From sequence record NC_049816.1: a stretch of 51,111 bases of DNA, one strand, 5' to 3'. How positions within the stretch are numbered: the stretch's first letter is position 1; every line of letters begins with the position of its first letter. The DNA comes from Escherichia phage tunus. Positions 1 through 47,319 of the stretch are shown here, piece after piece. The notes beneath the pieces were generated by a model that had not been told where the DNA came from, did not search any database, and saw only the letters and a list, made by a program, of their open reading frames with translations. The translations under genes were made by a program, and so were the position numbers.

Positions 1-395
<395 letters not shown>

Positions 396-3218: not shown

Positions 3219-6200
3219 ACCAGCTTCCGGTAATCCTTCCGACTTCAACCCTCAATACTCCGTTTGCATCTTTTACCTTCAATCCCTCATTGGTGAATTT
3301 AGTAGCTCCTTCTCCTGGCGTTGATCCGTAATTCTCAAAGATTCCGTTTTTATCAAGCCTCCATCCTTGCTGGTTTTGAACAAAGTTGTTTGACTGAATC
3401 ACATTACCAATCATCGCATTAGTGATTGAACCGTTCTTAACCAAAAGACTATTAATGAAAACCTGATTATTCTCAACCACGAAAGGCAAAGTAAAAGTCC
3501 CTCCAGTAGAGCTAGTCATAATGGCGAACCTGTTAGCATCAAACAAAATTTGCGAGATAAGGCCGGATGAACCCTGCGAAAGCTGCATCACCATTCCTGC
3601 GCTGTATTGCTGGCCTTTGTAAGTAAGGCCAAGTTTCATAGCGTATTTAGCGCCAACTGAATCAACGCTCGCCCAAGAATCCAACTTTTCAACCAATGCA
3701 GATTCAACGTCGCCAAATCGTGCTGTTAATGCCTGGTCAGCCTGAACCCTTGCCTCTGTCTCATTGGCGATCGCCTGTTTCACTTCTGAGATGTTAGCCT
3801 CGACTTCTGTTTTGATAACTCCGTCAAGGTCGTTTATCTCTTTCGTGAACTTAGCGTCAAGCTGCTGAACGGCCTGAGCGCGCGCTTCTGACTCGTTAGT
3901 GATTGTCTGCCTTACATCGCTAATGCTTGCAGAAGTATCCTTGCGCACGCCGTCGATTTCTTTTGTGAATTTAGAATCAAGCTGCTGAATTTGAGTCGCT
4001 CGCGTCTCTGATTCAGTGGCAATTGCCTCCTGCACTGTCTTGATGCTTGATGTTATCTCGCCATCAATTGATGCCCTTAACTCTTCGATTTGAGTTACGC
4101 GCGCTTCTGTTTCATTGGCGATAAGCTCAAGAGCATGACCATATTCAGCCTTGCGCTTTCCGTTTTGCACTCGCGTCCACTTCACATCTGCATCATTTGC
4201 CAACGCGTTCTGTATGATTGATTGTGCCTGGTCTTTGATTTTATTGGCGCTGTCTATGGCGTTCTCTTTGATTTCTTGACCAGCTTCTGTATCAAAAATC
4301 TTGTCCAGAATGTCGCCCAAAACAGATTCAACATCATCTGACGCCATACCGCGAACAAAGTCAGTCCAACTGGAAACGTTGCCTATTCTGTCAACGCTGC
4401 GGATTCTATACCATACAACTTGCCCCGCTGGTAACGTGCTATGCCAATACTCATATTGAGGATATGGAATCAGCGTAAGCAGACTTGAGTTTTCAACCGT
4501 TCCGTCTGGCGATTGGTGAAGCTCAATGTAAGCCGTATCGCCTGATCCTTCCGGCATACCCCATTTGACACGAATGCCAAAAACTTCATTATCAGAAGCC
4601 GTAAGATTAATCGGCGCTCCTGGCTCGCCAACTTTACCTGTCAGAGTGGCGGTTGCAATCTTTGACCACGGGGAAGCGTTACCGCTTGCAGAAACGGATC
4701 TCACCCTTACTTGGTAGTTGCCTGAATAAATCCCTTCTACCTCTATCTCTTTGTTAGCGGTCTGCGGCGTATTCAGCCAGTTACCATCACCTTTTCGCCA
4801 CTGCATTTCATAAAGCGATGCGTAAGGAACCTTATCCCATGAAACAACCATAGTCTCAACGCTAACGCCCTGCACGACGCGAGAATAAGATGAGATCTTA
4901 ACGTTCTCAGGCGCTGCCATCACGTCAGGCTGAACAATTGAAGTCGGCCTGTCATCAATGTTTACGCCATAATCAATCTCGTCGTATTTGTTCGGATCGT
5001 ACTCCACAGCCGTGATTGAATAGGTAAACTCGTTTTCGTCATCACCCTTGCTGATAGTTGTCACAACGTATTGCTGCAACGCAAGATCAGTACGGTCAAT
5101 CGCAAAAACAGTATCAGGCTTAACATCAAAACCAAATCCAATATTTAACTCTATGGTTTTTCCGTCTGCGCTAACCTTTGAGATCGTGCGCTTAACTGGC
5201 TTGCCGTCCGGCTTGTTGATGATAATAAAATCACCAGGGCGAGCATCAACCTTAAACGGAACGAAAACCTGCAATCCTGAAACTTCCATTACTCGGCCCG
5301 ATAGGTTTAACGTTAGGTTGCTACTCTGAAAATTATCAGCGATAGCAATAACATCACCTATTGATGGAATCATCCCCTCTAGTCCGGTAGCAAAGTTTAC
5401 AGTAGTGCTTCTAAGGTTTGTTTTCAAAACCCACCGACCGCGACGATTCGCTTCGCTCCTGCGTGTGCACCCGATCGCTGTAATGCTTGTTGGATTGTAT
5501 CCAAATCGTAATGCCGCCTCAGTATCAAAAACACCCTCTACGTCCTGCTGATACATGTTTTGTTCGTCGTCAAACGTCACGTTACACTGCGTGTACATGC
5601 TTTTTTCGCTTGCGGTTGTGTACTGAAAATCACCGTTGATGACGTTTTCATTAGTAAACACGTATGATGGATCGCGTGGCTTATCAATCACGATTGATAA
5701 GCTCTCACCATTCCAAAAACTCATTCCGCGAAAGATTGAGCAAATGTCACGGATTAGCTGATAAGCCTCAACTTGATTCTGAATCACCACATCGCATAGG
5801 TAGCGAGGCTCAGTACCGCCCTTACCGTCTGGAACTTTCTGATCACAGTAAACGCCCGCCTCGTATAAGCTCCACTTGTCGATCTGTATTCCTAACTCTC
5901 GCTGATCAAGTCCATAACGCTGATTTGTCACCAGATCATAAAGAACCCAAGCGGGATTATTTGACCACGCTTTTTTAAAAGTCCCATCCCATGACCCGTG
6001 ATATTCTCTTGATATTGGATCATAGTTGCTTGGCACATTAATAATCTTCCATTTCTTTTTTATAGAAATGTTAGGGATTTGCGTAGGAAACAATTCACTG
6101 TCAAATTCTACGAATACAAGGCCAGTCAGAGGATAACGGAATTTTGCATCAACAACCTCAGCGTAACTTTGCAGCTTGATTTTATCAGTTACCTTTGAAG

Positions 6201-12714: not shown

Positions 12715-12785
12715 CTTAAGATCTCCTTATAGCACTTTTTGTTAAAAGTGGAATTAATTTATTTGATAGATTGATTTTACAGGAA

Positions 12786-16472: not shown

Positions 16473-16522
16473 TAGATGATAGCACTTTTTGTTAAACGTG
16501 CAATGTTTTTTTATGCTATTAG

Positions 16523-28070: not shown

Positions 28071-28101
28071 GATTTAATCCTCGTTTGTTGTTTATGGGCT
28101 T

Positions 28102-30688: not shown

Positions 30689-30872
30689 AGAATTTTACCT
30701 CTTCCACAAGCTCAACCATCTTGTAACCAAGACGATAAGAGTCACCGAACAACAAGATCCCCATAAATTCATCGTGGCTTATTGACTCTTTGCCAACCGT
30801 TCTAAGCTCGCCGTTGTGAATCACAGTATCGCCGATCTTGATTTCTGATTTATGGACTAATTTCGTTTTCAT
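30687..30872 (-). CDS. Hypothetical protein
   Basis: 61-aa ORF with weak Shine-Dalgarno GGGTGA. Confidence 0.4.
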   Translation of the reverse strand: MKTKLVHKSEIKIGDTVIHNGELRTVGKESISHDEFMGILLFGDSYRLGYKMVELVEEVKF

Positions 30873-30887
30873 TTATTCACCCGCTAA

Positions 30888-31073
30888 TTAAAAGAACGCT
30901 ACATAGTTTGCAATGCCTTTGGCGTCGTCGTTTGGCATTGCTTTTACAGCCAGGTCATAACCTGCCTCTACCTTCTGCTTTGCTGTTTCTTCGTTGTAGC
31001 CCCAGATAACCAGGATTTTAACTACGTTTTCTTTGTTCAGGACTTTAAGGTCTTTGGTGATGCGACGTGCCAT
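30888..31073 (-). CDS. Hypothetical protein
   Basis: 61 aa, RBS GAGGAAAC. Confidence 0.4.
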   Translation of the reverse strand: MARRITKDLKVLNKENVVKILVIWGYNEETAKQKVEAGYDLAVKAMPNDDAKGIANYVAFF

Positions 31074-31104
31074 TTTTGTTTCCTCAATCTCGTTTCGATG
31101 AGGC

Positions 31105-31150
31105 TATTATGCCAGGCTTCGCGCCTGGCGTTTTAACAAAAAGTGCTATT
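31105..31150 (-). promoter_or_regulatory. Phage promoter module (box + 19-bp hairpin spacer + CATAAT)
   Basis: Exact box; spacer palindrome CGCCAGGCgcgaaGCCTGGC; transcript would begin near CATCGAAACGAG. Confidence 0.5.
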
Positions 31151-31418
31151 TTGTCTCGACGGTCATATGTTCTGTCTTCGTGCCTTTGCCATTGCTTTTC
31201 GACACTTCCCAGCTAGTAGCGCCCTTGCAGTTGGTGAAGTAAACAGTGCGATCGTCATAGAATCGGTAAACGGTGCAACCGTCAGCGGTGAATAGCTCCC
31301 TTACGCTGTAGTCATCGCCAGGGTTAGCCATCTGCACATTGCCAACATGCGCGCCATCTTCTTTGCATCCGGTCAGGAATGCCATTGCCGCCAAAACGCT
31401 GATTAATGCCTTTTTCAT
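31146..31418 (-). CDS. Small lipoprotein, second candidate exclusion / surface lipoprotein
   Basis: 90 aa, RBS AAGAGGAAG; signal peptide MKKALISVLAAMAFLTGC with lipobox. Confidence 0.55.
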   Translation of the reverse strand: MKKALISVLAAMAFLTGCKEDGAHVGNVQMANPGDDYSVRELFTADGCTVYRFYDDRTVYFTNCKGATSWEVSKSNGKGTKTEHMTVETK

Positions 31419-31879
31419 TGCTCTTCCTCTTTGATGATTTCGCGGATCATATCCTGGTAGCGGCTTACGCCCTCACAAGCTCCAGCCAGTTTATCCCCTT
31501 CCAGGTCAACGATATTCGGGATTGCTGCCAGTATGCGATCGGCAAACTTTTTGATCGCCCTTGCCTTGATGGCTGGCAATTCTTCGGGTGTGATGATTTT
31601 CCTTTTCGATTCGCGGACCATGCGGAAAACGTAAAATTTATCATCTTCCGTTTCCTCTACCTTGATGCTTACCCGACCTGCGGCCCTTACTTCTGGAACG
31701 CGGTTGATAATGGTCCGGCTGTAGGATGAACTGCGCGTGATCTTGTAGCAGTCGTCACCGCTTAACATTCCGGCCAGGTCAATTAGTGACATTTTATACT
31801 CTTCAATATCGCCACTAGCCAGGCGGCGACCAAGCTCGCGAAGCCAATCGCAATAGTCCTTAGTGGTCTTCTGTTCCAT
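31415..31879 (-). CDS. Hypothetical early protein (first gene of leftward early unit)
   Basis: ATG at 31879 with RBS GGAGGAAAGG; the track's upstream ATG overlaps the promoter -10. Confidence 0.5.
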   Translation of the reverse strand: MEQKTTKDYCDWLRELGRRLASGDIEEYKMSLIDLAGMLSGDDCYKITRSSSYSRTIINRVPEVRAAGRVSIKVEETEDDKFYVFRMVRESKRKIITPEELPAIKARAIKKFADRILAAIPNIVDLEGDKLAGACEGVSRYQDMIREIIKEEEQ

Positions 31880-31910
31880 TTCCTTTCCTCCAGTTGTTGA
31901 CTGTTGGCGC

Positions 31911-31939
31911 ATTATAAAAGCTATTTGGTGCGTGTCAAT
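31911..31939 (-). promoter_or_regulatory. sigma70-type early promoter TTGACA-N17-TATAAT (leftward)
   Basis: Consensus hexamers; resembles the promoter at 1554-1581. Confidence 0.55.
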
Positions 31940-32374
31940 GTTTTTGTTGTATTCAAAACGTTACCAATATCGAAAAACTACAAAATCATGCGCAAGTTAT
32001 TGATTTCGCGGCTGTTATTTTTCTGTTCACTCTGTTAACGCAATCCGCCGGAAAAAGTATATATACATATGCAATCCGCCGCGCGCGCAACTATCCATAT
32101 ATACCCACACACAACCACACCATAACCAACAAAAAGCACTGTAACAGTGAGAACAAAAAGAAAACATTATAGATATATATAAATAAATAATCTTTATTTT
32201 CAATGTATTATAGAGGATTTTCTTTGTTTTTTCCGTTTTCGCTACACCGGAAAACCGCGCGGAAACACGCCGCCTGAAATCGGTAACAGGGGTGAACAAA
32301 AGACAACAACCACTGACAGCCAGGCGGAAAAGTGAGGCAAGAGGGGAAGGTTTCACTATCTCCCCTGCAACCAA

Positions 32375-32463
32375 TGATTAAACGTGATTACTTTTCTCAT
32401 CAAATTTGCAAAGGCAATCATCATTTTGACGTGATTTGATTACGAATGATTACTTTTGATTAT
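32375..32463. repeat. Phased GATTA(C) direct repeats (iteron-like)
   Basis: Five TGATTA/GATTAC copies at about 32376, 32386, 32438, 32448, 32458, the last three exactly 10 bp apart, just upstream of the rightward promoter module. Confidence 0.45.
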
Positions 32464-32491
32464 TTCGATCGCAATCCTGGCGATAACCGTC

Positions 32492-32537
32492 AAATAGCAC
32501 TTTTTGTTAAAACTCAGGCCACCTGATCGGGTACATT
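32492..32537 (+). promoter_or_regulatory. Phage promoter module (box + 19-bp spacer + TACATT)
   Basis: Exact box; transcript would start near the conserved CATCGAAACGAACC. Confidence 0.5.
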
Positions 32538-32577
32538 ACACACATCGAAACGAACCGCACTTACTGAGGACCAAACA

Positions 32578-32880
32578 ATGATTAACATGAACCTGTTCAC
32601 CGCTAAAGACCACGAGAATATGGCAGCACTGGCTGACCTGTTCGAAACAGCAGAAATGGCTGAACTGTTCATGACTGAGCATGAATTCCAGGACGGCATC
32701 AGCAATGCCATTGAAACAAATTTTGGCGACGCTCGCGTTACTGGTGCAATGTTTGCAAATATCGCGCGTAAATTCTTCCAGGCTTACCGCGACGCTCGCC
32801 ATGTAAAGGGCACGTTTGGATCTGCGAAAGACACCGCTGAAACTATCCGCGCTTACATTGAGCGCCACGCAAAACAATAA
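32578..32880 (+). CDS. Hypothetical acidic early protein (first gene of rightward early unit)
   Basis: 100-aa ORF with weak Shine-Dalgarno GAGGAC; Asp/Glu-rich N-terminal half. Confidence 0.5.
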   Translation: MINMNLFTAKDHENMAALADLFETAEMAELFMTEHEFQDGISNAIETNFGDARVTGAMFANIARKFFQAYRDARHVKGTFGSAKDTAETIRAYIERHAKQ

Positions 32881-32924
32881 ATAGCACTTTTTGTTAAAAG
32901 CTGATCGGGATAACCTGGTATAGT
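32879..32924 (+). promoter_or_regulatory. Phage promoter module (box + 19-bp hairpin spacer + TATAGT)
   Basis: Exact box; spacer palindrome GGGATAAC...GTTATCCC; followed by CATCGAAACGAACC. Confidence 0.5.
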
Positions 32925-32959
32925 TATCCCATCGAAACGAACCGCTCAGGAGATAGTAA

Positions 32960-33232
32960 ATGAACATCAGCAAAACCACTTTCAATTTCGCTAAGCGTCA
33001 CGGTCTTGATCTGACTGTTGAAGATTTTGGCGATGTTCTGCAACTCTGCATTTGGGAAGCAGATAACGATTGCGAGTGGCTTTGCTCTTATCGTATTAAC
33101 TACGATTGCTTGACCTGGCACGGCAATATCTATCTGCCGCAAGAAGTGAAAGAAGAATTGCCAGCGACTATCAACAACGAAGTTTTCTTGCGCCAGGTGC
33201 TGAAATTTATCAGTAAGGAGATCAAAAAGTAA
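32960..33232 (+). CDS. Hypothetical protein
   Basis: 90-aa ORF with weak Shine-Dalgarno AGGAGA close to ATG. Confidence 0.45.
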   Translation: MNISKTTFNFAKRHGLDLTVEDFGDVLQLCIWEADNDCEWLCSYRINYDCLTWHGNIYLPQEVKEELPATINNEVFLRQVLKFISKEIKK

Positions 33233-33498
33233 TGGCGGTGATTACCGAAAATGATTTGGATCTGGCGGAGGCGTTTTGCAGGGCCGCCAGGGCCAACCTG
33301 GATGTGGCTACTAAATTTCTTCCGGCGCGACCACTCTTTTCGTGTGCGCCCGTGAATAAACCGACTCGCGTAATGATCGTGATTGAAGGTGATGGCCTGT
33401 ACGCTGAAAAGACGTTCCACATCAGCAACATTAAGGGCCGTGCTGATTTTATCAATGATGTTTGCTTATTGCAGGAGAAGAAAAAATGTTGGATGTGA
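33232..33498 (+). CDS. Hypothetical protein
   Basis: 88 aa, RBS AAGGAG, TAATG overlap with upstream stop. Confidence 0.45.
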   Translation: MAVITENDLDLAEAFCRAARANLDVATKFLPARPLFSCAPVNKPTRVMIVIEGDGLYAEKTFHISNIKGRADFINDVCLLQEKKKCWM

Positions 33499-33695
33499 TC
33501 AAGAAAGCCCGTGAGATGGGTATGGATGTTTCAATCTGCGACGCTTCCGCGCGTCACCCGTCAGCACCTGAAAATATGGTTGTTGTCATCGTGCATAATC
33601 ACCGCTATGAGTGCCGTGCGATGTTTGAGAAGCAGGATAAAGAGTCTCAACGCTGCTTTATCAATGAAGTTTGCGATCTGTATGGTCGGATCTGA
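33486..33695 (+). CDS. Hypothetical protein
   Basis: ATG at 33486 with RBS AGGAGA. Confidence 0.4.
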   Translation: MLDVIKKAREMGMDVSICDASARHPSAPENMVVVIVHNHRYECRAMFEKQDKESQRCFINEVCDLYGRI

Positions 33696-33921
33696 AATGT
33701 TCAAGAAATTGTTATGGCTGTACCGCTCCAGGCGCAACAAGGGATATTGCAGGGGCACGGAAAGGAATCTTGACCGCGCTTATAAATACTGTCTGTTGTT
33801 GCTCGCCAGTCTGCCGGAAAACAGGAAGGAATATATTGCGCTGCGAGAAATAACAATGCGGATATATAGTTACAGAAATAAACTATACGTCTTTAAATCT
33901 TTACGATAAGGAGTAATAACC

Positions 33922-34185
33922 ATGAAAATTAATGCACCTATTCCAGTTAAGCGCAAAGCACGTTTGCTCAATAACGGATGTTACGCCCTGCGGCCTGCAT
34001 TTAAGGCTCGCACATTTCCGGTTATCGTTAACGTGTCTCACGTAAGCCGTAGCGGAAACCTGGTATTCGTTAAAGGTGAAGATCTGGCGGCGCTTGGATT
34101 CTATGGCGGTGCTCACGGAGAACCGCTCGGATTCTGGCTTGTAGATCCGTTAACTGGAGAGCGTGAAATCGAATTTCTGGACTAA
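33922..34185 (+). CDS. Hypothetical protein
   Basis: 87 aa, RBS AAGGAG; about 225 bp of low-coding-potential sequence upstream. Confidence 0.45.
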   Translation: MKINAPIPVKRKARLLNNGCYALRPAFKARTFPVIVNVSHVSRSGNLVFVKGEDLAALGFYGGAHGEPLGFWLVDPLTGEREIEFLD

Positions 34186-34229
34186 ATAGCACTTTTTGTT
34201 AAAAACGATGCGCTGCTGATTGGTATAGT
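34184..34229 (+). promoter_or_regulatory. Phage promoter module (box + 19-bp hairpin spacer + TATAGT)
   Basis: Exact box; spacer palindrome GATGCGCT...AGCGCATC. Confidence 0.5.
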
Positions 34230-34260
34230 AAGCGCATCGACAACAAACGAGGATTTAAAG

Positions 34261-34458
34261 ATGGAAAATCAGGTTGATGTTAAAGTTGTTAAGCGCGACA
34301 AGTCTCACGAAAAAGGTTTGTTTAAGAAAGGTGCTGAAATCACCATTGACCTTGATGATATGGAGGCGTATCACTCAGGGCTAACTTGGAACGTTCGCAA
34401 ATGTGAAAACGGCCTGTTCAAGTTAAATGGCTTTGAAACATACATGGAGATCATTTAA
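34261..34458 (+). CDS. Hypothetical protein
   Basis: 65 aa, RBS GAGGA. Confidence 0.45.
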   Translation: MENQVDVKVVKRDKSHEKGLFKKGAEITIDLDDMEAYHSGLTWNVRKCENGLFKLNGFETYMEII

Positions 34459-34670
34459 TGGCAAAGCAATTAAAACTTAAATGCGTAGAAACTTATAACT
34501 CAATTTGGAAATTCACGCGCGAAAAAGAATATCCACTAATGGGAAATCTCAAAGAAGATCCTCATGTAATTTCAGATAATGGTCTTCACCTTTATTTGAT
34601 GGAATACAACGATGGCTATATTGGTGCTGGTGTTCCTGGACATAAATTTAAGCTGAAAAATAAGAAATGA
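34458..34670 (+). CDS. Hypothetical protein
   Basis: 70 aa, TAATG overlap with upstream stop. Confidence 0.45.
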   Translation: MAKQLKLKCVETYNSIWKFTREKEYPLMGNLKEDPHVISDNGLHLYLMEYNDGYIGAGVPGHKFKLKNKK

Positions 34671-34778
34671 GGCTATTTATTTTCAAAAACGCTTGGATGG
34701 TTGCGGTTGCAAATGACCATTACGGCGGCGACGGAAAAAGAGCACGACGCCATTCATATTTCAATTGAGGATATTTAA

Positions 34779-35006
34779 ATGAAAGCAAAAGTTTTAAACA
34801 TTGTGTCAACTATTGACGCCCATCACCGCGTGGCTGTAAAACTTGATAAGTCTTGTGGAATTAGCCAAATCACTATCACCGAGGGTAAAGGCGGCTATCT
34901 TATTGGTATCCATCCAGGCGGTAAGGTGCGCAAATACAATAAAGATCAGTTAAAAGAATTACTGGAAGAAAACGCTTTCTATATTCAAAGTTGGCGTGCT
35001 CTTTAA
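34779..35006 (+). CDS. Hypothetical protein
   Basis: 75 aa, RBS GAGGA. Confidence 0.45.
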   Translation: MKAKVLNIVSTIDAHHRVAVKLDKSCGISQITITEGKGGYLIGIHPGGKVRKYNKDQLKELLEENAFYIQSWRAL

Positions 35007-35048
35007 TTAATATGGCGGCGTTTTGCCGCCTTTTAAATGAGGTGGAAA

Positions 35049-35165
35049 ATGATAGATAAGGCTATTGATTTCTTTTTTTATTCGATTATTGGCGCGGTTG
35101 GCTTTTTGGTTACTGCTGCTGGCCTGGCTATTATCTTGGCTGTTATTAAGGGGATTATGCGATGA
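35049..35165 (+). CDS. Small hydrophobic peptide (38 aa, single transmembrane helix)
   Basis: ATG at 35049 with RBS GAGGTGG; ATGA overlap with next gene; below track cut-off. Confidence 0.3.
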   Translation: MIDKAIDFFFYSIIGAVGFLVTAAGLAIILAVIKGIMR

Positions 35166-35386
35166 GTCAAGACGGATTTTTTGAGCGCCTTCAAATGGCA
35201 GAAGATGCCGGACTAAATAAAGAGGCGGCGCTTGAAGTGGCATATAAAATTAAGACTCTTGATGAGGCTTTAGGTGATATGGATATGGATCTTGAATCAA
35301 GCGCAATATTTGCAGATCCCACTATGATTGTTAATGATTGTGGATGCGATTTCGATCCTGGTTGTCCGCGCTGTTTTCCGTTTTGA
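35162..35386 (+). CDS. Acidic protein with C-terminal Cys4 zinc-ribbon-like motif
   Basis: 74 aa, Asp/Glu-rich; C-terminal CGCDFDPGCPRC. Confidence 0.45.
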   Translation: MSQDGFFERLQMAEDAGLNKEAALEVAYKIKTLDEALGDMDMDLESSAIFADPTMIVNDCGCDFDPGCPRCFPF

Positions 35387-35396
35387 GGTAATGACG

Positions 35397-36107
35397 ATGT
35401 ATAAAGGTTTAATATTCTCCCTATTTGATGGATCTGGTAAAGCCGTTAAAGATTGGGCTGATAATGGCTATAAGTGCATTTGCTTTAATGCTGACGGCGG
35501 CGATCACGGTGATTACCAGTCAGTGCGCATACAGCATGAGAATATCGAATACGTTAACGTCTGGATTGATGATGCTTTTTATGTTAAGGCAATCAATAAT
35601 GAGTGGGGCAATCCTGATTTTATTATGGCCTTCCCACCATGCACCGACCTTGCAAATAGCGGATCTCGCCATTGGGCTAAAAAGCGCCTTAAAAATCCAT
35701 CTTTCCAGGATGAGGCCGCCGACACTTGCAGAATCGCGGCTGATATAGCTGATTATTTCGGTGTTCCATACATGATCGAAAATCCGGTTGGCAAGTTGTC
35801 AACGTTATGGCGAAAGCCTGATTATACGTTCCATCCGTGCGATTACGCTAGCTATCTGCCGGAAGATGATAAACATCCCGACTTCCCTGATATTATTCCG
35901 GCGCGGGATCGCTATTTTAAGAAAACATGCCTCTGGACTGGCAACGGCTTTGTTATTCCTCCACGCGCTTTAATCCTGCCGAAAGAGAAAGACAAAGATA
36001 ATCCAGGCTGGGCCAAAACTGGCGGCAATTCATCGCGCACAAAGATGATCCGCTCCCTCACTCCGCGCGGCTTTGCTCGCGCCGTCTTTGAGTCAAACTC
36101 AAAATAG
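35397..36107 (+). CDS. DNA cytosine-C5 methyltransferase-like protein (short, core motifs only)
   Basis: ATG at 35397 with RBS GAGGT; motif I-like FSLFDGSG, motif IV-like FPPC, motif VI-like ENPVGKL in canonical order and spacing; no obvious target-recognition domain. Confidence 0.55.
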   Translation: MYKGLIFSLFDGSGKAVKDWADNGYKCICFNADGGDHGDYQSVRIQHENIEYVNVWIDDAFYVKAINNEWGNPDFIMAFPPCTDLANSGSRHWAKKRLKNPSFQDEAADTCRIAADIADYFGVPYMIENPVGKLSTLWRKPDYTFHPCDYASYLPEDDKHPDFPDIIPARDRYFKKTCLWTGNGFVIPPRALILPKEKDKDNPGWAKTGGNSSRTKMIRSLTPRGFARAVFESNSK

Positions 36108-36147
36108 CACTTTTTGTTAAAAGCCAGGTGTAAAAACCTGGCATAAT
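36102..36147 (+). promoter_or_regulatory. Phage promoter module (box + 19-bp hairpin spacer + CATAAT)
   Basis: Exact box; spacer palindrome CCAGGtgtaaaaaCCTGG. Confidence 0.5.
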
Positions 36148-36176
36148 CACATCAAACAAACAAAGGAGATCTGATC

Positions 36177-36563
36177 ATGAATGTTATCTGTAATGAAACC
36201 AACGTATTGATGAAAGGCCGATTTAAAACGGTTTATCAGAAGATTGCAGGAAGTAATGATGTGATCGAGGTGGAAGAATTCCAGGTTAAGACGCTTGTTA
36301 AGGGTAGCCGCTGGCTTCCAGCAAACCGAGATGATTACCGCGTCATTAACACAAAAACCGTTCTTTGCACGTTTGTAGATCATAACATGCCGTGCAAAAA
36401 GCACTTTAAGCAGGGAAAGCGATACCAGATCGAGAAAGGGCGACCGCTTGGAAGCGTTGCGGGTTATGTTTTTGATGAGTGCGGCGACCGCTGGAACCTG
36501 TACCGTGAAGAGGTCGGATTCTCTGCTGGCGGCTGTTATCTTTTTGAGGGTAAATATCTGTGA
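36177..36563 (+). CDS. Hypothetical protein
   Basis: 128 aa, RBS AAGGAG. Confidence 0.45.
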   Translation: MNVICNETNVLMKGRFKTVYQKIAGSNDVIEVEEFQVKTLVKGSRWLPANRDDYRVINTKTVLCTFVDHNMPCKKHFKQGKRYQIEKGRPLGSVAGYVFDECGDRWNLYREEVGFSAGGCYLFEGKYL

Positions 36564-36781
36564 TAAACAGTGAAAACCGTTACAAAGTAACGAATTCTAC
36601 CACAAAGACTTTCAAGCCTGGCGATATAGTCAGGCCCATCAAAAAAACGGCGGTAGGTTGGCTGATTGGTTTTTCATATCATAAGGCTCTTTACTTTACG
36701 TTTAAGGATGGGATCATGGGGGAATGCTATAGCGACCGCCATCCTGATCGACTTCTGGTTGCAATAGAGCGGATCAAATAG
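36560..36781 (+). CDS. Hypothetical protein
   Basis: 73 aa, start overlaps upstream stop. Confidence 0.4.
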   Translation: MINSENRYKVTNSTTKTFKPGDIVRPIKKTAVGWLIGFSYHKALYFTFKDGIMGECYSDRHPDRLLVAIERIK

Positions 36782-36821
36782 CACTTTTTGACAAAACGGG
36801 GTAGTATTGGGCCGTTAAAAT
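36776..36821 (+). promoter_or_regulatory. Phage promoter module (variant box TTGACAAAA + 19-bp spacer + TAAAAT)
   Basis: Box variant AAATAGCACTTTTTGACAAAA; hairpin GGGCCGttaaaatttaCGGCCC. Confidence 0.45.
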
Positions 36822-36849
36822 TTACGGCCCACAAAGGAGAAGCTAACGA

Positions 36850-38430
36850 ATGTTTTCATTAGAAACGAACAAATTAACTCCACAGCAAATAATCGCTATG
36901 GCTGAAAGCCAGAACCTTTCACCAGTTCGCGTATCAATTCAGGCTAACGGCTATCGCCAGTCGTCCAGCTTTTGGGGCGACGTAAAGGATGTGAATAGCG
37001 GTCACGATCGCTACCCCGTTATTTCTCTTGGTAATGATATTGATGTTGTCGGCAAGTTATCACGCAGCATTGCGCGATCCGTTCAATTCCCTGAATCATC
37101 GGCTTACATGCACTTTATCGGCTGCATTTCTGCCGCTATGCTTGGACGCTTTACGGTTGACTATCACGGAACCGATCAGCCGACTGCGCTTTACGTCGTT
37201 ACAAGCCAGCCGCCGTCAACTGGTAAATCTGCGATCAACAGCATGGCTATTGCTCCGATGATTGCGGAAGTTGAGAAGATCAACGAGAAACGCCGCAAGG
37301 AAAGAAAGAAAATACAGGCAAAGCTGGCAGGTCTTGCAAAGGAGATGAAAAGCGAAAGATCCGGCGCTGATATGGAATCTCTATACCAGGAAAAAGAGGA
37401 TCTGGAGGAAAAGCTGGAAAAAATGTGTGATATAACTTTTCCTGTTTCAGATACAACTCCAGAAGGCTTGGCGAAAATCAACAACAAGCAAGGTAACTTT
37501 GCCGTAATTTCTGATGAAGCAACAAGTATTAACAGTCTGTTAGGTTTGACCTATGCAAATAGCGAAAGGAAGACTAACAGTGAGTTAGTGCTTAAGGCGT
37601 GGGATAATGGTCACGTATCAATTGCCCGTGCTAATGCTGACAATAATATGAGTTTTCGCGCGCTTGGATGTATGAGCGTTATAGCCCAGGATGAAACGAT
37701 AAGCGGAATCATGGACGCTGGATCGCGAGGCATCGGTGTTAGTGAGCGTTTTTTGTTGGTCCGCGAGGAATCATTCTTAGGCCGTCGCTCATTCATTGAT
37801 GAAAATGGTGATTCTACCTATGAGGCGGTGGATTCTGAATTGAAAGCCCAATATTATCAATTGGTGCATAACATCATGAGCGAATCAAATATATCGCTGA
37901 AAATAAGCCGTTCAGCTATGCGAGTGCTCAACATTGCTCGCCAGGATATGGAGCCGCATCTTGCAGACGGAGGAAAGTATTCTCATACAATGTTACGCGG
38001 TGCGCTGGGTAAAATGGATAAACAGGTGATCAGGCTTGCTTCCGTCCTGCATGTTATCCGTAACTGGTTTAATCCTGCCGGATACCCGCAGAAGTCGAAA
38101 GAGATCGACGTGGAAACAATGCAAGAGGCGTTGATCATGTTTCAGGAATTGAGCAAAACATACATTAGCGCCGCCAATGCTTCTGGTTATGCTGGTGATG
38201 ATGCTGAAATGGGTAAATTGATTGAATTGATCACGAGGCACGGCAAGGCTAACAAAGGGATCCTGAATATTCGCGCCCTGTACGAATCAGCGAGAAAGGT
38301 AAAACCTTTCGTTGGTCAGGCTGGCGTAATGAAAAGGATAGAAGGGCACTTACTGCCAATGCTGGAAGAAAGAAATTATGTTTGTGTGATTAATGGTGTT
38401 ATTTTTGTCAATCCAATACTGCTGGGATGA
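36850..38430 (+). CDS. P-loop NTPase with SF3-helicase/AAA-like Walker motifs (function unknown)
   Basis: 526 aa, RBS AAAGGAGA; Walker A VTSQPPSTGKSA and Walker B FAVISDEATS about 110 aa apart; Lys/Glu-rich coiled segment between them. Confidence 0.6.
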   Translation: MFSLETNKLTPQQIIAMAESQNLSPVRVSIQANGYRQSSSFWGDVKDVNSGHDRYPVISLGNDIDVVGKLSRSIARSVQFPESSAYMHFIGCISAAMLGRFTVDYHGTDQPTALYVVTSQPPSTGKSAINSMAIAPMIAEVEKINEKRRKERKKIQAKLAGLAKEMKSERSGADMESLYQEKEDLEEKLEKMCDITFPVSDTTPEGLAKINNKQGNFAVISDEATSINSLLGLTYANSERKTNSELVLKAWDNGHVSIARANADNNMSFRALGCMSVIAQDETISGIMDAGSRGIGVSERFLLVREESFLGRRSFIDENGDSTYEAVDSELKAQYYQLVHNIMSESNISLKISRSAMRVLNIARQDMEPHLADGGKYSHTMLRGALGKMDKQVIRLASVLHVIRNWFNPAGYPQKSKEIDVETMQEALIMFQELSKTYISAANASGYAGDDAEMGKLIELITRHGKANKGILNIRALYESARKVKPFVGQAGVMKRIEGHLLPMLEERNYVCVINGVIFVNPILLG

Positions 38431-38822
38431 TTATGTTTTTGCTTGATCTGTATAAATGGTGTGAGTCATACGATTGGTTTAACAGGCAGCACATAGCCAA
38501 ATTTATCTATCAGCATAGAGAATGTGAGCGGCTCGCACGGGCCGCCGGACTTACGCCGCGAATGTTCGCCAGCCTTGCATCTAAGGAATTTTGCGCAAGA
38601 ATGATGACGGCTGGTTATATAGATGGAGTCTGCGGAAAATACTGGTCCAAAGGATCGTCAAAGCGGCCTTTCGGATTCGAATTGTATAGCCTGGATGGTA
38701 TGCGCAACGACTGGATCAGGGATATGGCTAGAATAGGGGAGATGGGCGATGATGAATTGTTCCAGGCAAAAGCTAATAGACAAGATCTTGAAGCACTGCG
38801 CCGTAAATTCAATATCACATGA
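38427..38822 (+). CDS. Hypothetical protein
   Basis: 131 aa, ATGA-coupled to the NTPase gene. Confidence 0.45.
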   Translation: MIMFLLDLYKWCESYDWFNRQHIAKFIYQHRECERLARAAGLTPRMFASLASKEFCARMMTAGYIDGVCGKYWSKGSSKRPFGFELYSLDGMRNDWIRDMARIGEMGDDELFQAKANRQDLEALRRKFNIT

Positions 38823-38833
38823 GGATTTTATTC

Positions 38834-38929
38834 ATGCGTTACTTACGCTGCTTTATTCAGATATGCGCGCTTTTGGCACCAATGAACACGTTTTATGCAA
38901 TGATGATGGTGTGTTATTGGTTACAGTAA
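38834..38929 (+). CDS. Small hydrophobic peptide (31 aa)
   Basis: ATG at 38834 with RBS GAGGA; alternative to the overlapping track ORF 38749..38943, which lacks an RBS. Confidence 0.25.
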   Translation: MRYLRCFIQICALLAPMNTFYAMMMVCYWLQ

Positions 38930-38937
38930 AGCGTATG

Positions 38938-38983
38938 GAATAGCATTTTTTGTTAAAACTCCCGACCTTGTGTCGGGTATATT
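38938..38983 (+). promoter_or_regulatory. Phage promoter module (box + 19-bp hairpin spacer + TATATT)
   Basis: Box variant gAATAGCATTTTTTGTTAAAA; spacer palindrome CCCGACcttgtgTCGGG; followed by CATCGAAACGAACC. Confidence 0.5.
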
Positions 38984-39020
38984 TGTTTCATCGAAACGAA
39001 CCAACCAAAAAGGAAAAATT

Positions 39021-39245
39021 ATGTCCAGCAAGTTTTTAGTAGTTCGCGTATACAATCATGCAAATGGATCTTCTTCTGAAATCCCGACAGTTTACGATAA
39101 GGATTCAGGCTGGAGTGAGCAATCGGCGGTTGAAAATGAGCGCAAGATTGCAGGACTATACGGCGACACTTGCAGCATTGAAGTAAGGCAGTACGACGAA
39201 TATAACAAACCAACAAACGAAAGCCATACGTGGCCCGACGCATAA
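39021..39245 (+). CDS. Hypothetical protein
   Basis: ATG at 39021 (MSSKFLVV) with purine-rich RBS. Confidence 0.4.
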   Translation: MSSKFLVVRVYNHANGSSSEIPTVYDKDSGWSEQSAVENERKIAGLYGDTCSIEVRQYDEYNKPTNESHTWPDA

Positions 39246-39280
39246 AAATAAAGGAGGCATTAAGCCTCCTTTTTCTTTTC
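39244..39280. terminator. Bidirectional intrinsic terminator between convergent units
   Basis: AGGAGGCattaaGCCTCCT with A-run upstream and T-run downstream; overlaps the spanin 3' end. Confidence 0.6.
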
Positions 39281-39655
39281 TATCCAGTAAAGACAAATCA
39301 GCACAAGAAACACAACCACGCATATGATTACTGGATCGTACCATCTGCCGTTATTACCCTGCACGACCTGAATTTTGTCTGCCTTGATGGTATTGGCCTG
39401 AATGGTTGATGTTGTGAAATCCTTCTTGCTGGACGTGTCCACCTTGTCAACCGCAGATTCCTTTATTGTGGTTTCCTGTTTTGTGCTGGCGTCCTGCTTT
39501 GCTGTAATGCCAACTGTCTGCTTCACGTTCTCCGCTCCAGCCTGTGCTGTGATTTCCGGCTTACTGCCGATTAATCCGGTCAGTGGCGTAACGCTTGAAC
39601 ATCCAGACAAGATCACCGCCATTGCGATTGGTGTAAGTAAAAAATTCTTCATCAT
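39260..39655 (-). CDS. Unimolecular spanin (lipoprotein with C-terminal transmembrane anchor)
   Basis: Signal peptide with lipobox LSGC, periplasmic Lys/Thr-rich region, C-terminal TMD; last gene of lysis cassette. Confidence 0.7.
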
Positions 39656-40143
39656 TTCAGATCCATTGTGCAATATTTGTATTCGACCTTGCGCCTGTTA
39701 AGTAAGCCTTTAGACTTCTCGCGCTTTCCTGTTTTTGGGTTATGGTAATAAGTCCAACGATAAAGCTGATCGCAAGCCTCGTTTAATTTCCCCTGGTTTA
39801 TGAGTTTCAGCATTGTTGAATTTCTGAAAGCTCCCACACCTGCATTGTAAGTGAATGAGTACATTGCTGCACGCATACTATCAGGAATGTAAACCTTAAC
39901 TTGCTTGTCAACTTCCTTTTTAGCAACCTGGATATGCTTAGCCAACAAAGCATCACACTCTTTTTTAGTGTACGTTTTCCCCAGGATAACATCTGGTCCG
40001 GTGATTCCTGCGCAAACCGTCCATACTCCCGCAATATCTTTGTATGGCTTGTATCTTACCCCTTCGATCTCTTCAAGAAGTGGAGAAGTCAAGGCAACCG
40101 CAACGCCAAAGGCCGCAGCCGCTACCCTGTTCTTTATGCTCAT
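39652..40143 (-). CDS. SAR endolysin (GH24 / T4-lysozyme-type muramidase with signal-arrest-release N-terminus)
   Basis: 163 aa; weakly hydrophobic Ala/Gly-rich N-terminus followed by catalytic E-x8-D/C-x5-T-like lysozyme motif. Confidence 0.75.
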
Positions 40144-42126: not shown

Positions 42127-42158
42127 TTTTATTTCCTCATGTTTGTTTCGTTGAAATA

Positions 42159-47255: not shown

Positions 47256-47319
47256 CACTTGAAAATGCTATTATCTGCATTGTCATTAGCAAAAAGTGCT
47301 ATTTAGGAGGATTTTACAA

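Follow-up and report, generated by a model that had tools for sequence, protein, structure and literature searches.

A recurrent 14-nt sequence behind the -10 of four promoter modules

The window analysed here is the whole 51,111-nt sequence of Escherichia phage tunus (NC_049816.1), a T1-like coliphage of the family Drexlerviridae, subfamily Tempevirinae, genus Warwickvirus; its region 31000–40000 is 96–99% identical to Escherichia phages SLUR29, tunus, tonn and swan01. The element in question is a 14-nt sequence, CATCGAAACGAACC, that lies just behind the -10-like hexamer of several promoter modules. The original prediction, made from the letters alone, had placed the same sequence at the modules at 32492, 32879 and 38938 and on the minus strand, and this is borne out by three exact plus-strand matches, the only ones in the window, and a single minus-strand copy, CATCGAAACGAG (Table 1). 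No further match to CATCGAAACGAACC appears in the window at up to two mismatches (0.44 expected). The minus-strand site once given as 31105 is the first base after the -10 of that module, and the copy itself reads CATCGAAACGA at 31090–31100, followed by G.

The four copies share a strict geometry. Exactly 5 nt separate the -10-like hexamer from the motif in all four, with CAT following, which agrees with the earlier placement of the motif directly after the -10, and the hexamer starts exactly 38 nt from the start of an upstream box in all four. This 19-nt box, ATAGCA(C/T)TTTTTGTTAAAA (ATAGCACTTTTTGTTAAAA in the module), occurs 19 times in the window at up to three mismatches, against 0.06 copies expected. 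It lies 76–84 nt before the ATG in the four motif-bearing cassettes, and taaATAGCAC junctions, which hold the stop codon of the upstream gene, are present in the window. The proteins encoded behind the four motif copies are 61–100 aa long and all belong to PHROG families of unknown function.

A family of promoter–leader cassettes with fixed geometry

For a view of the family that does not depend on the motif, the upstream box served as the sole criterion for gathering cassettes from 120 IMG/VR loci, phage T1 and the window. The 246 unique box sites included 192 with a good -10, and these yielded 159 unique cassettes with canonical spacing, which were aligned on the -10. Since the selection required A-11 and T-7, these two bases are not independent evidence for the -10. 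In 126 of these 192 cassettes the distance from the box start to the start of the -10 is exactly 38 nt. Behind it the 159 cassettes have the consensus CAtCgAaACgAAaC, running into the Shine-Dalgarno (SD) sequence, and the aligned consensus, ...TGGTATAAT-tacCt-CATcGAAAcgAAac-GGAG, is the motif first noticed in the window. Base frequencies are 0.64 for C-3, 0.74 for C-1, 0.81 for A+1, 0.52 for T+2, 0.48 for C+3 and 0.51 for G+4, then about 0.68 for A+5–7, 0.49 for C+8, 0.38 for G+9 and about 0.68 for A+10–11. T makes up about 10% of positions +3 to +17, compared with a background of 25%, and this depletion reaches past the motif. The motif, first described at several promoters only, is thus the consensus 3′ end of a whole family of promoter cassettes, and the four window copies are the cassettes nearest the family consensus.

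The promoter half of the cassette is equally regular. G-14, the mark of an extended -10, is present in 81% of the cassettes. A conserved -35 at 17 nt is absent from the alignment, which has TTGnTA at 22 nt and (C/T)TAAAA at 19 nt upstream of the -10. Within -32 to +2, 78% of the cassettes can form a stem of at least 6 bp, with G-T pairs allowed, as opposed to 29% of shuffles. An SD and start codon follow in 142 of the 159, and the median 5′ untranslated region (UTR) is 26 nt.

Position within the cassette tells which signal the motif belongs to. Its core, CGAAACGA, allowing one mismatch, begins at +3 in 40 of 51 cassettes with a standard deviation of 1.8 nt, whereas its distance to the SD or ATG has a standard deviation of 4.0 nt. 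The motif is anchored to the -10 and the predicted start, not to the ribosome-binding site. The 14-mer probably corresponds to positions -1 to +13 of compact promoter–leader cassettes that precede many T1-like genes, mostly small and of unknown function. In the order that we propose, a cassette would begin with a 21-nt A/T-rich box, aaATAGCACnnnTTGnTAAAA, at about -52 to -32, often with the upstream gene's stop codon at its very start. Next would come a variable GC-rich hairpin, then the -10, often TGn-extended, 38 nt from the box start. After a further 5 nt would stand CAT, with its A as the start, about 13 nt of A/C-rich, T-poor leader, the SD and the ATG.

The motif is also kept in related phages, namely swan01, tonijn, G3B1, T1, Rtp and many T1-like IMG/VR contigs. 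Its earlier designation as an initial transcribed sequence (ITS) is reasonable given the fixed distance to the -10, a CAT like that at the T7 A1 and A3 starts, and the conservation, with the start itself placed by inference. The observation is real, and the interpretation first attached to it is partly supported.

Composition, structure and constraint of the leader

From +3 to the SD the leader is composed of A 0.48, C 0.26, G 0.14 and T 0.12. Leaders taken with 15 nt of coding sequence have a mean folding energy of -0.044 kcal/mol/nt, compared with -0.149 for random segments from the same loci (p = 7e-44). These values bear on the suggestion of a shared 5′ leader element, which had raised the general idea of a structured cis-regulatory RNA such as a riboswitch, thermometer or attenuator at the 5′ end. 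No Rfam family reaches its gathering score in the window or in five lambdoid loci, the minimum free energies of the four window leaders are just -1.1 to -3.5 kcal/mol, and only about 13 nt of leader precede the SD; a structured RNA is effectively refuted. The motif is not a separate RNA element, being anchored to the -10 and start, unstructured and without an Rfam match.

An open leader could alternatively be kept as a translational enhancer or ribosome standby site that boosts ribosome loading on the SD. The leader abuts the SD within a median 5′ UTR of 26 nt, its A/C-rich composition suits such a role and the region is much less structured than random genomic segments; the variants ACAACAACAAC and CAAACAAACAAAG are ones that we take to resemble CA-repeat enhancers. 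We nevertheless consider this reading unlikely. The motif keeps its distance from the -10 and not from the SD or ATG, shuffled leaders are equally unstructured, such that the specific sequence is unneeded for accessibility, and an identical 14–19 nt opens the pL transcript of phi80-type phages, where the N start codon is about 400 nt further downstream (see below).

Constraint was measured in 11 clusters of cassettes with a common downstream gene as the mean pairwise difference per region. This difference is 0.40 in the upstream flank, 0.29 in the spacer, 0.24 in the discriminator and 0.20 at third codon positions, compared with 0.146 in the ITS (+2 to +13), 0.11 at -1/+1, 0.10 in the box and 0.07 in the -10. 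The leader thus evolves more slowly than its nearly neutral neighbours and faster than the core promoter elements.

Recombination junctions within the leader and the box

Close relatives of the window differ from it by units bounded by cassettes. Phages swan01, tonijn and G3B1 have a single cassette where the window has two, at 32494 and 32881. Their cassette is composed of the box, spacer and -10 of the 32494 cassette, followed by CATCGAAACGAACCGC and by the SD and gene of the 32881 cassette, and a 387-bp unit consisting of gene 32578–32880 and one cassette is missing from all three. In the window this unit is flanked by a 16-nt direct repeat, CATCGAAACGAACCGC, at 32543–32558 and 32930–32945. 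The chimeric cassette thus identifies a 387-bp indel flanked by the 16-nt leader, with the crossover inside the leader. Similarly, the unit 30689–31129, which carries the gene behind the minus-strand copy, is missing from swan01 with a junction within the box. In tonijn and G3B1 the 34186 cassette is present in two copies that enclose an additional unit of about 0.5 kb, and here too the junction is within the box. In sum, cassettes bound the units 30689–31129, 32559–32878 and 34185–34264. By manual recount about 10 of 27 distinct alignment breakpoints, or 16 of 38 counted per genome, fall in cassette spans, which make up 3.7% of the window.

The chimeric cassette is strong evidence for recombination at the leader and, to judge from these alignments, the leader demonstrably acts as a recombination patch at the DNA level. 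Recurring as it does at many genes and across many phages, the sequence provides a patch of homology at which recombination inserts, deletes or swaps gene-plus-cassette units.

Such exchange raises the question of whether the leader has any function of its own or is carried along by duplication, recombination and gene conversion, through which cassettes multiply and become uniform. Crossovers do lie inside both box and leader, the motif is missing from many cassettes, and the three plus-strand window copies share ...GAACC where most other phages have ...GAAAC, which fits shared descent or conversion. Simple hitchhiking is nonetheless decidedly unlikely. Between box and leader, spacer and discriminator vary freely, but the leader itself is retained; T-depletion reaches past the motif; and the leader sequence recurs at the same 5-nt spacing behind otherwise unrelated promoters, which include at least 52 lambdoid operator regions, TTGACA-type cassettes of T4-like phages and Vibrio phages.

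Relation to PeSL cassettes and to the T1-like 21-nt repeats

Promoter-early stem-loop (PeSL) cassettes were described in the T4-type phages RB49 and Phi1 (Arbiol, Comeau, Krisch 2010, PMC2839356; Comeau 2014, PMC4122927). A PeSL consists of an A/T-rich stretch with the upstream stop codon, -35 and -10 hexamers, a stem-loop that lies between the two hexamers or covers the -10, an SD and a start codon (PMC2839356). One PeSL of Phi1 drove lacZ to about 13,000 Miller units, and terminator activity was shown for one Phi1 stem-loop; the word "leader" does not occur in the text of that paper (PMC2839356). In the hyperplastic region of Phi1, intergenic cassettes read TTGACA, GC hairpin, TATAAT or CATAAT, acaca or acacc, then CATCAAAACGAAAC, CATCGAAACGAGA, CATCGAAACGAGATACC or CATACCGAAACGAAC, GGAG and ATG.

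The T1-like cassettes share this order of parts down to the SD and start of a small ORFan. The half from the -10 to the leader is nearly identical, with TATAATacacaCATCAAAACGAAAC and CATAATacaccCATCGAAACGAGA in Phi1 and TACATTacacaCATCGAAACGAACC in the window. Both types have a GC-rich stem-loop located between the promoter hexamers or overlapping them, and in both, cassettes bound the indels between close relatives. Phi1 ORF194 and the window open reading frame (ORF) 32960–33232 are 64% identical (E = 6e-42), and each lies directly behind a leader-bearing cassette. The two types also differ. Here the host genome is a T1-like siphovirus, as opposed to a T4-like myovirus; TTGACA at 16–18 nt is absent and an ATAGCAC...TTGnTAAAA box stands at a fixed 38 nt instead; and many T1-like hairpins are without a T-run, which makes a terminator function doubtful. 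Promoter strength, terminator activity and mini-circles were addressed in Phi1 by reporter assays and inverse PCR (PMC2839356), whereas here they are at most predicted. On this footing the T1-like cassette would, as we judge more probable than otherwise, be the counterpart of the PeSL cassettes of T4-type phages, with the -10-to-leader half in common.

The ORFan family phrog_6147 is common to T1-like phages, Krischvirus (Phi1 locus 5899–6168) and Stephanstirmvirinae (Paula, REC). In Stephanstirmvirinae the homologue of ORF 32960–33232 lies behind another type of cassette, TTGACA-17-TATATT with a CATAG start and a GC hairpin inside the leader; the leader is therefore not tied to the gene.

The upstream box has been described before. 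Phage TLS has 18 intergenic 21-nt direct repeats of consensus aaATAGCACnnnTTGnTAAAA, co-oriented with transcription and about 76 nt before start codons, and such repeats are also found in T1, Rtp and Rogue1 (PMC11447400). Only three sigma-70-like promoters were found in TLS; stoperator, enhancer-site or UP-element roles were suggested for the repeat, and its function was listed as an open question (PMC11447400). The consensus of the window boxes is identical to this repeat, and the boxes are likewise co-oriented and intergenic, 76–84 nt from the ATG as compared with about 76 nt. In contrast, the TLS paper treats the 21-mer alone and makes no mention of a fixed -10 at 38 nt, of the hairpin, of a conserved start and leader or of a role in recombination (PMC11447400). 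A standard sigma-70 scan misses every cassette, which accounts for only three promoters having been found in TLS.

The same start in other phages and promoters

The start sequence extends beyond T1-like phages. In the T4-like Cronobacter phages leE and Banach, box, terminator-like hairpin and -10 are followed by CATCGAAACGAAAC. A 40-nt query comprising -10 and leader matches 531 phage records, with up to seven sites per genome in T4-like Klebsiella, Cronobacter and Citrobacter phages and further matches in T1-like, lambdoid, Vibrio, Pectobacterium and Aeromonas phages. In two Vibrio phage examples the motif lies 5–6 nt behind the -10. In Vibrio phage 1.216.O the coding sequence NVP1216O_49 (8–266) spans terminator, promoter, leader, SD and ATG (GATACT-tattc-CATCGAAACGAAAC...GGAATCAAAACTATG), and its annotated start is probably wrong. 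Of the phage records that match this T1-like coliphage DNA, 12–20 are labelled "Campylobacter phage" (host C. jejuni) and look like mislabelled or contaminating Drexlerviridae.

A scan of IMG/VR for T-N5-CATCGAAACGAAMC gave at least 123 matches. Among the matches listed, at least 78 lie behind operator-rich promoters and continue ...ATCGACAGCTGAGCG..., with at least 52 distinct upstream 45-mers; 11 have the ATAGCAC box, nine stand in other contexts of promoter, SD and start, ten have a -10-like hexamer only and 15 look like chance. The operator-rich loci, at least 78 in number, carry pL promoters of the phi80/Stx type. The annotated pL of phi80 has the -10 TTTAAT, then tactc and CATCGAAACGAAAC, and the first 19 nt, CATCGAAACGAAACATCGA, are followed by nutL and N. 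The likeness to the T1-like cassettes lies in this 19-nt start, 5 nt past the annotated -10; the differences are a leader of about 400 nt with nutL before N, the lack of an ATAGCAC box and control by a repressor. An HK022 put-like RNA was considered for the lambdoid matches and rejected, the loci being phi80/Stx-type pL with an N leader and annotated nutL. At least 52 operator/promoter regions (immunity types) are joined to the one pL start CATCGAAACGAAACATCGA, a mosaic boundary in lambdoid prophages as well.

A background scan of one genome for each of 185,579 bacterial and archaeal species gave mostly chance matches without promoter context. All nine of its Enterobacterales and Vibrio matches have a promoter or pL context, and it gave no sign of a host chromosomal promoter family with the motif.

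Well-characterised phage promoters begin in a comparable way. In T7 A1 the annotated +1 falls on the A of ccAtcgagagg (T7 A1 sequence, ccAtcgagagggacacggcgaat), and in T7 A3 on the A of cAtgaaacgacag (cAtgaaacga). T7 A1 (AUCGAGAGGGACACGGCGAA) and T7 A3 (AUGAAACGACAG) share with the motif a CAT start, AUCGA or GAAACGA and a long U-free stretch. Unlike the situation for T7 A1, T7 A3 and T5 N25, for which no consensus ITS across promoters is described, a specific 14-mer recurs here across phage families. Heyduk and Heyduk state that earlier work had identified no obvious conserved ITS patterns (PMC5961368). The ITS alters promoter output by orders of magnitude and controls escape (PMC5961368, PMC12464699): slow-escaping sequences have two or three T in the first 7 nt and TG pauses near +5/+6, and escape is favoured by stable RNA/DNA hybrids and good base stacking (PMC5961368).

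Two further readings concern recognition of the motif. A phage or host DNA- or RNA-binding regulator might recognise CGAAACGAAAC as an operator over +1 to shut off or time early genes. The conservation is sequence-specific and fixed relative to the start, CGAAA-CGAAA within the motif is a direct repeat, a transcriptional regulator is annotated in T1-like phages, and the TLS authors raised stoperator-like or enhancer-binding roles for the upstream repeat (PMC11447400). The motif has no dyad symmetry, however, a 5-nt repeat period would put half-sites on opposite faces of the helix, and the phage families that have the motif in common are not known to share a regulator, as judged without a protein-by-protein comparison; this reading is very unlikely. 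To our knowledge none of IHF, Hfq (ARN)n, CsrA, NAD-capping or 16S rRNA complementarity fits the motif.

Alternatively, and as a tentative and rather doubtful proposal, CATCGAAACGAAAC might be a dedicated early-transcript start signal across phage families. It would be read sequence-specifically, either by RNA polymerase and sigma-70 over the first 10–13 nt or by a factor of host or phage origin acting at the 5′ end of the RNA. Selection would keep it in Drexlerviridae, several Straboviridae genera, the phi80/Stx-type lambdoid pL and Vibrio phages, and cassettes would move genes between these families.

Proposed role of the start sequence

The reading that we favour, and hold to be likely without being secure, is that the motif is the start site and ITS of a PeSL-like promoter cassette and doubles as a recombination patch. 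Host sigma-70 polymerase would start at the A of CAT, using the extended -10 and the upstream A/T-rich box. The T-free, purine-rich ITS would avoid initiation pauses and weak rU:dA hybrids, allowing fast clearance of strong promoters, a proposal that fits the large-scale ITS data (PMC5961368). A short unstructured leader would keep the ribosome site open and aid ribosome loading. The leader probably favours both promoter clearance and an open 5′ UTR.

Several observations weigh against this interpretation. Shuffled leaders fold at -0.054 kcal/mol/nt and are almost as unstructured as the real ones. Since shuffling the leader alone barely alters its folding energy, composition and not exact base order gives the open 5′ UTR, and an unstructured leader is ruled out as the reason for the exact sequence. 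The reading does not account for the CGAAA-CGAAA 5-mer periodicity or for the exact base order. Many cassettes manage without the motif, with 11 of the 19 in the window deviating from the consensus at five or more of 14 positions, and the corresponding copies in close relatives carry point changes. There is no canonical -35, a standard scan for the sigma-70 consensus TTGACA-16..18-TATAAT calls none of the cassettes, and with TTGnTA 22 nt from the -10 the cassettes may depend on an activator. Gene conversion between cassettes could mimic purifying selection, and the comparative samples are phylogenetically non-independent. Intergenic DNA is expected to hold most breakpoints anyway, which makes their enrichment in cassette spans weak evidence by itself. 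A mapped transcription start for any T1-like phage was not found in the searchable literature, and +1 is placed by inference. The exact base order is most simply explained by shared descent and the horizontal spread of cassettes, and retention through sequence-specific recognition is possible.

The upstream 21-nt repeat and the PeSLs are each already known separately. A link between repeat and PeSL, the conserved 14-nt start and its spread across phage families were not found in the searchable literature, which also gave nothing relevant for the motif string or for start-site or RNA-seq data on Drexlerviridae. Placing the repeat at the upstream end of a promoter cassette of fixed geometry provides a testable promoter map for T1-like phages and connects them to the PeSL gene-shuffling mechanism of T4-like phages, with one small ORFan behind cassettes in both. 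One 14-nt start behind very different promoters is a natural experiment on how the ITS influences promoter output, and the motif is of practical use as a marker in the annotation of early promoters and in the design of strong, compact expression cassettes.

Features of the window

The coordinates of the four motif-bearing cassettes, of their degenerate relatives and of the variable unit are collected in Table 1. The counterpart of the 42202(-) cassette in swan01 and G3B1 has the same box and a similar spacer hairpin and gene start, and reads CATCGAAACGAACG.

Table 1. Cassette parts and leader relatives in the window (starts are predicted).
Feature	Position	Strand	Remarks
Cassette A box	31131–31149	-	
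Cassette A -10 CATAAT	31106–31111	-	spacer hairpin GCCAGGCgcgaaGCCTGGC before it
Cassette A leader CATCGAAACGAGAT	31087–31100	-	predicted start A 31099
Cassette A ATG	31073	-	61-aa ORFan 30888–31073, phrog_7717
Cassette B box ATAGCACTTTTTGTTAAAA	32494–32512	+	about -50 to -32 from predicted start; same as TLS repeat aaATAGCACnnnTTGnTAAAA
Cassette B -10-like hexamer TACATT	32532–32537	+	box start + 38 nt
Cassette B leader CATCGAAACGAACC	32543–32556	+	predicted start A 32544
Cassette B SD GAGG and ATG	SD 32566, ATG 32578	+	100-aa ORFan 32578–32880, phrog_12926
Body of 387-bp unit	32559–32878	+	not in swan01, tonijn, G3B1
Cassette C box	32881–32899	+	
Cassette C -10 TATAGT	32919–32924	+	TGG before it (extended -10)
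Cassette C hairpin containing the -10		+	GGGATAAC...GTTATCCC
Cassette C leader CATCGAAACGAACC	32930–32943	+	predicted start A 32931
Cassette C SD AGGAG and ATG	SD 32948, ATG 32960	+	90-aa ORFan 32960–33232, phrog_6147
Cassette D box ATAGCATTTTTTGTTAAAA	38940–38958	+	
Cassette D -10 TATATT	38978–38983	+	spacer hairpin CCCGACcttgtGTCGGG (38961–38977) before it
Cassette D leader CATCGAAACGAACC	38989–39002	+	predicted start A 38990
Cassette D SD and ATG	SD 39010, ATG 39021	+	74-aa ORFan 39021–39245, phrog_27210
Degenerate leader CATCGACAACAAAC	34235–34248	+	34186 cassette
Degenerate leader CAACGAAACAAACA	42140–42153	-	42202(-) cassette
Degenerate leader CATAAACAACAAAC	28083–28096	-	28145(-) cassette
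Weaker leader relative TATTGAAGCGAAAC	25291	-	
Weaker leader relative CAAACAAACAAAGG	36153	+	

Three box copies, at 12729–12747(+), 16479–16497(+) and 47284–47302(-), are without a canonical -10 or leader. Those at 12729(+) and 47302(-) are followed by hairpins with flanking A- or T-runs (GGGGCGCAACGCCCC; CCCCGCATAAGCGGGG), and the copy at 16479 coincides with an alignment breakpoint in swan01. Right behind ORFan 39021–39245, a bidirectional terminator-like hairpin at 39250–39272 (AAAGGAGGCattaaGCCTCCTTT, T-runs on both strands) closes the one-gene cassette unit of that ORFan.

Between the two divergent early gene arms lie about 570 bp of non-coding DNA (31913–32490), A/T-rich in places, with short repeats: GCAATCCGCCG twice, 31 nt apart, TATATATA blocks and TGATTA-type repeats. 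It is a candidate for a pac or terminal-redundancy region or for an origin. At 31911–31938 on the minus strand a perfect sigma-70 consensus promoter, TTGACA-16-TATAAT (12/12), points leftward into gene 31415–31912; it has no ATAGCAC box, and its leader reads AACAGTCAACAACTGGAGG.

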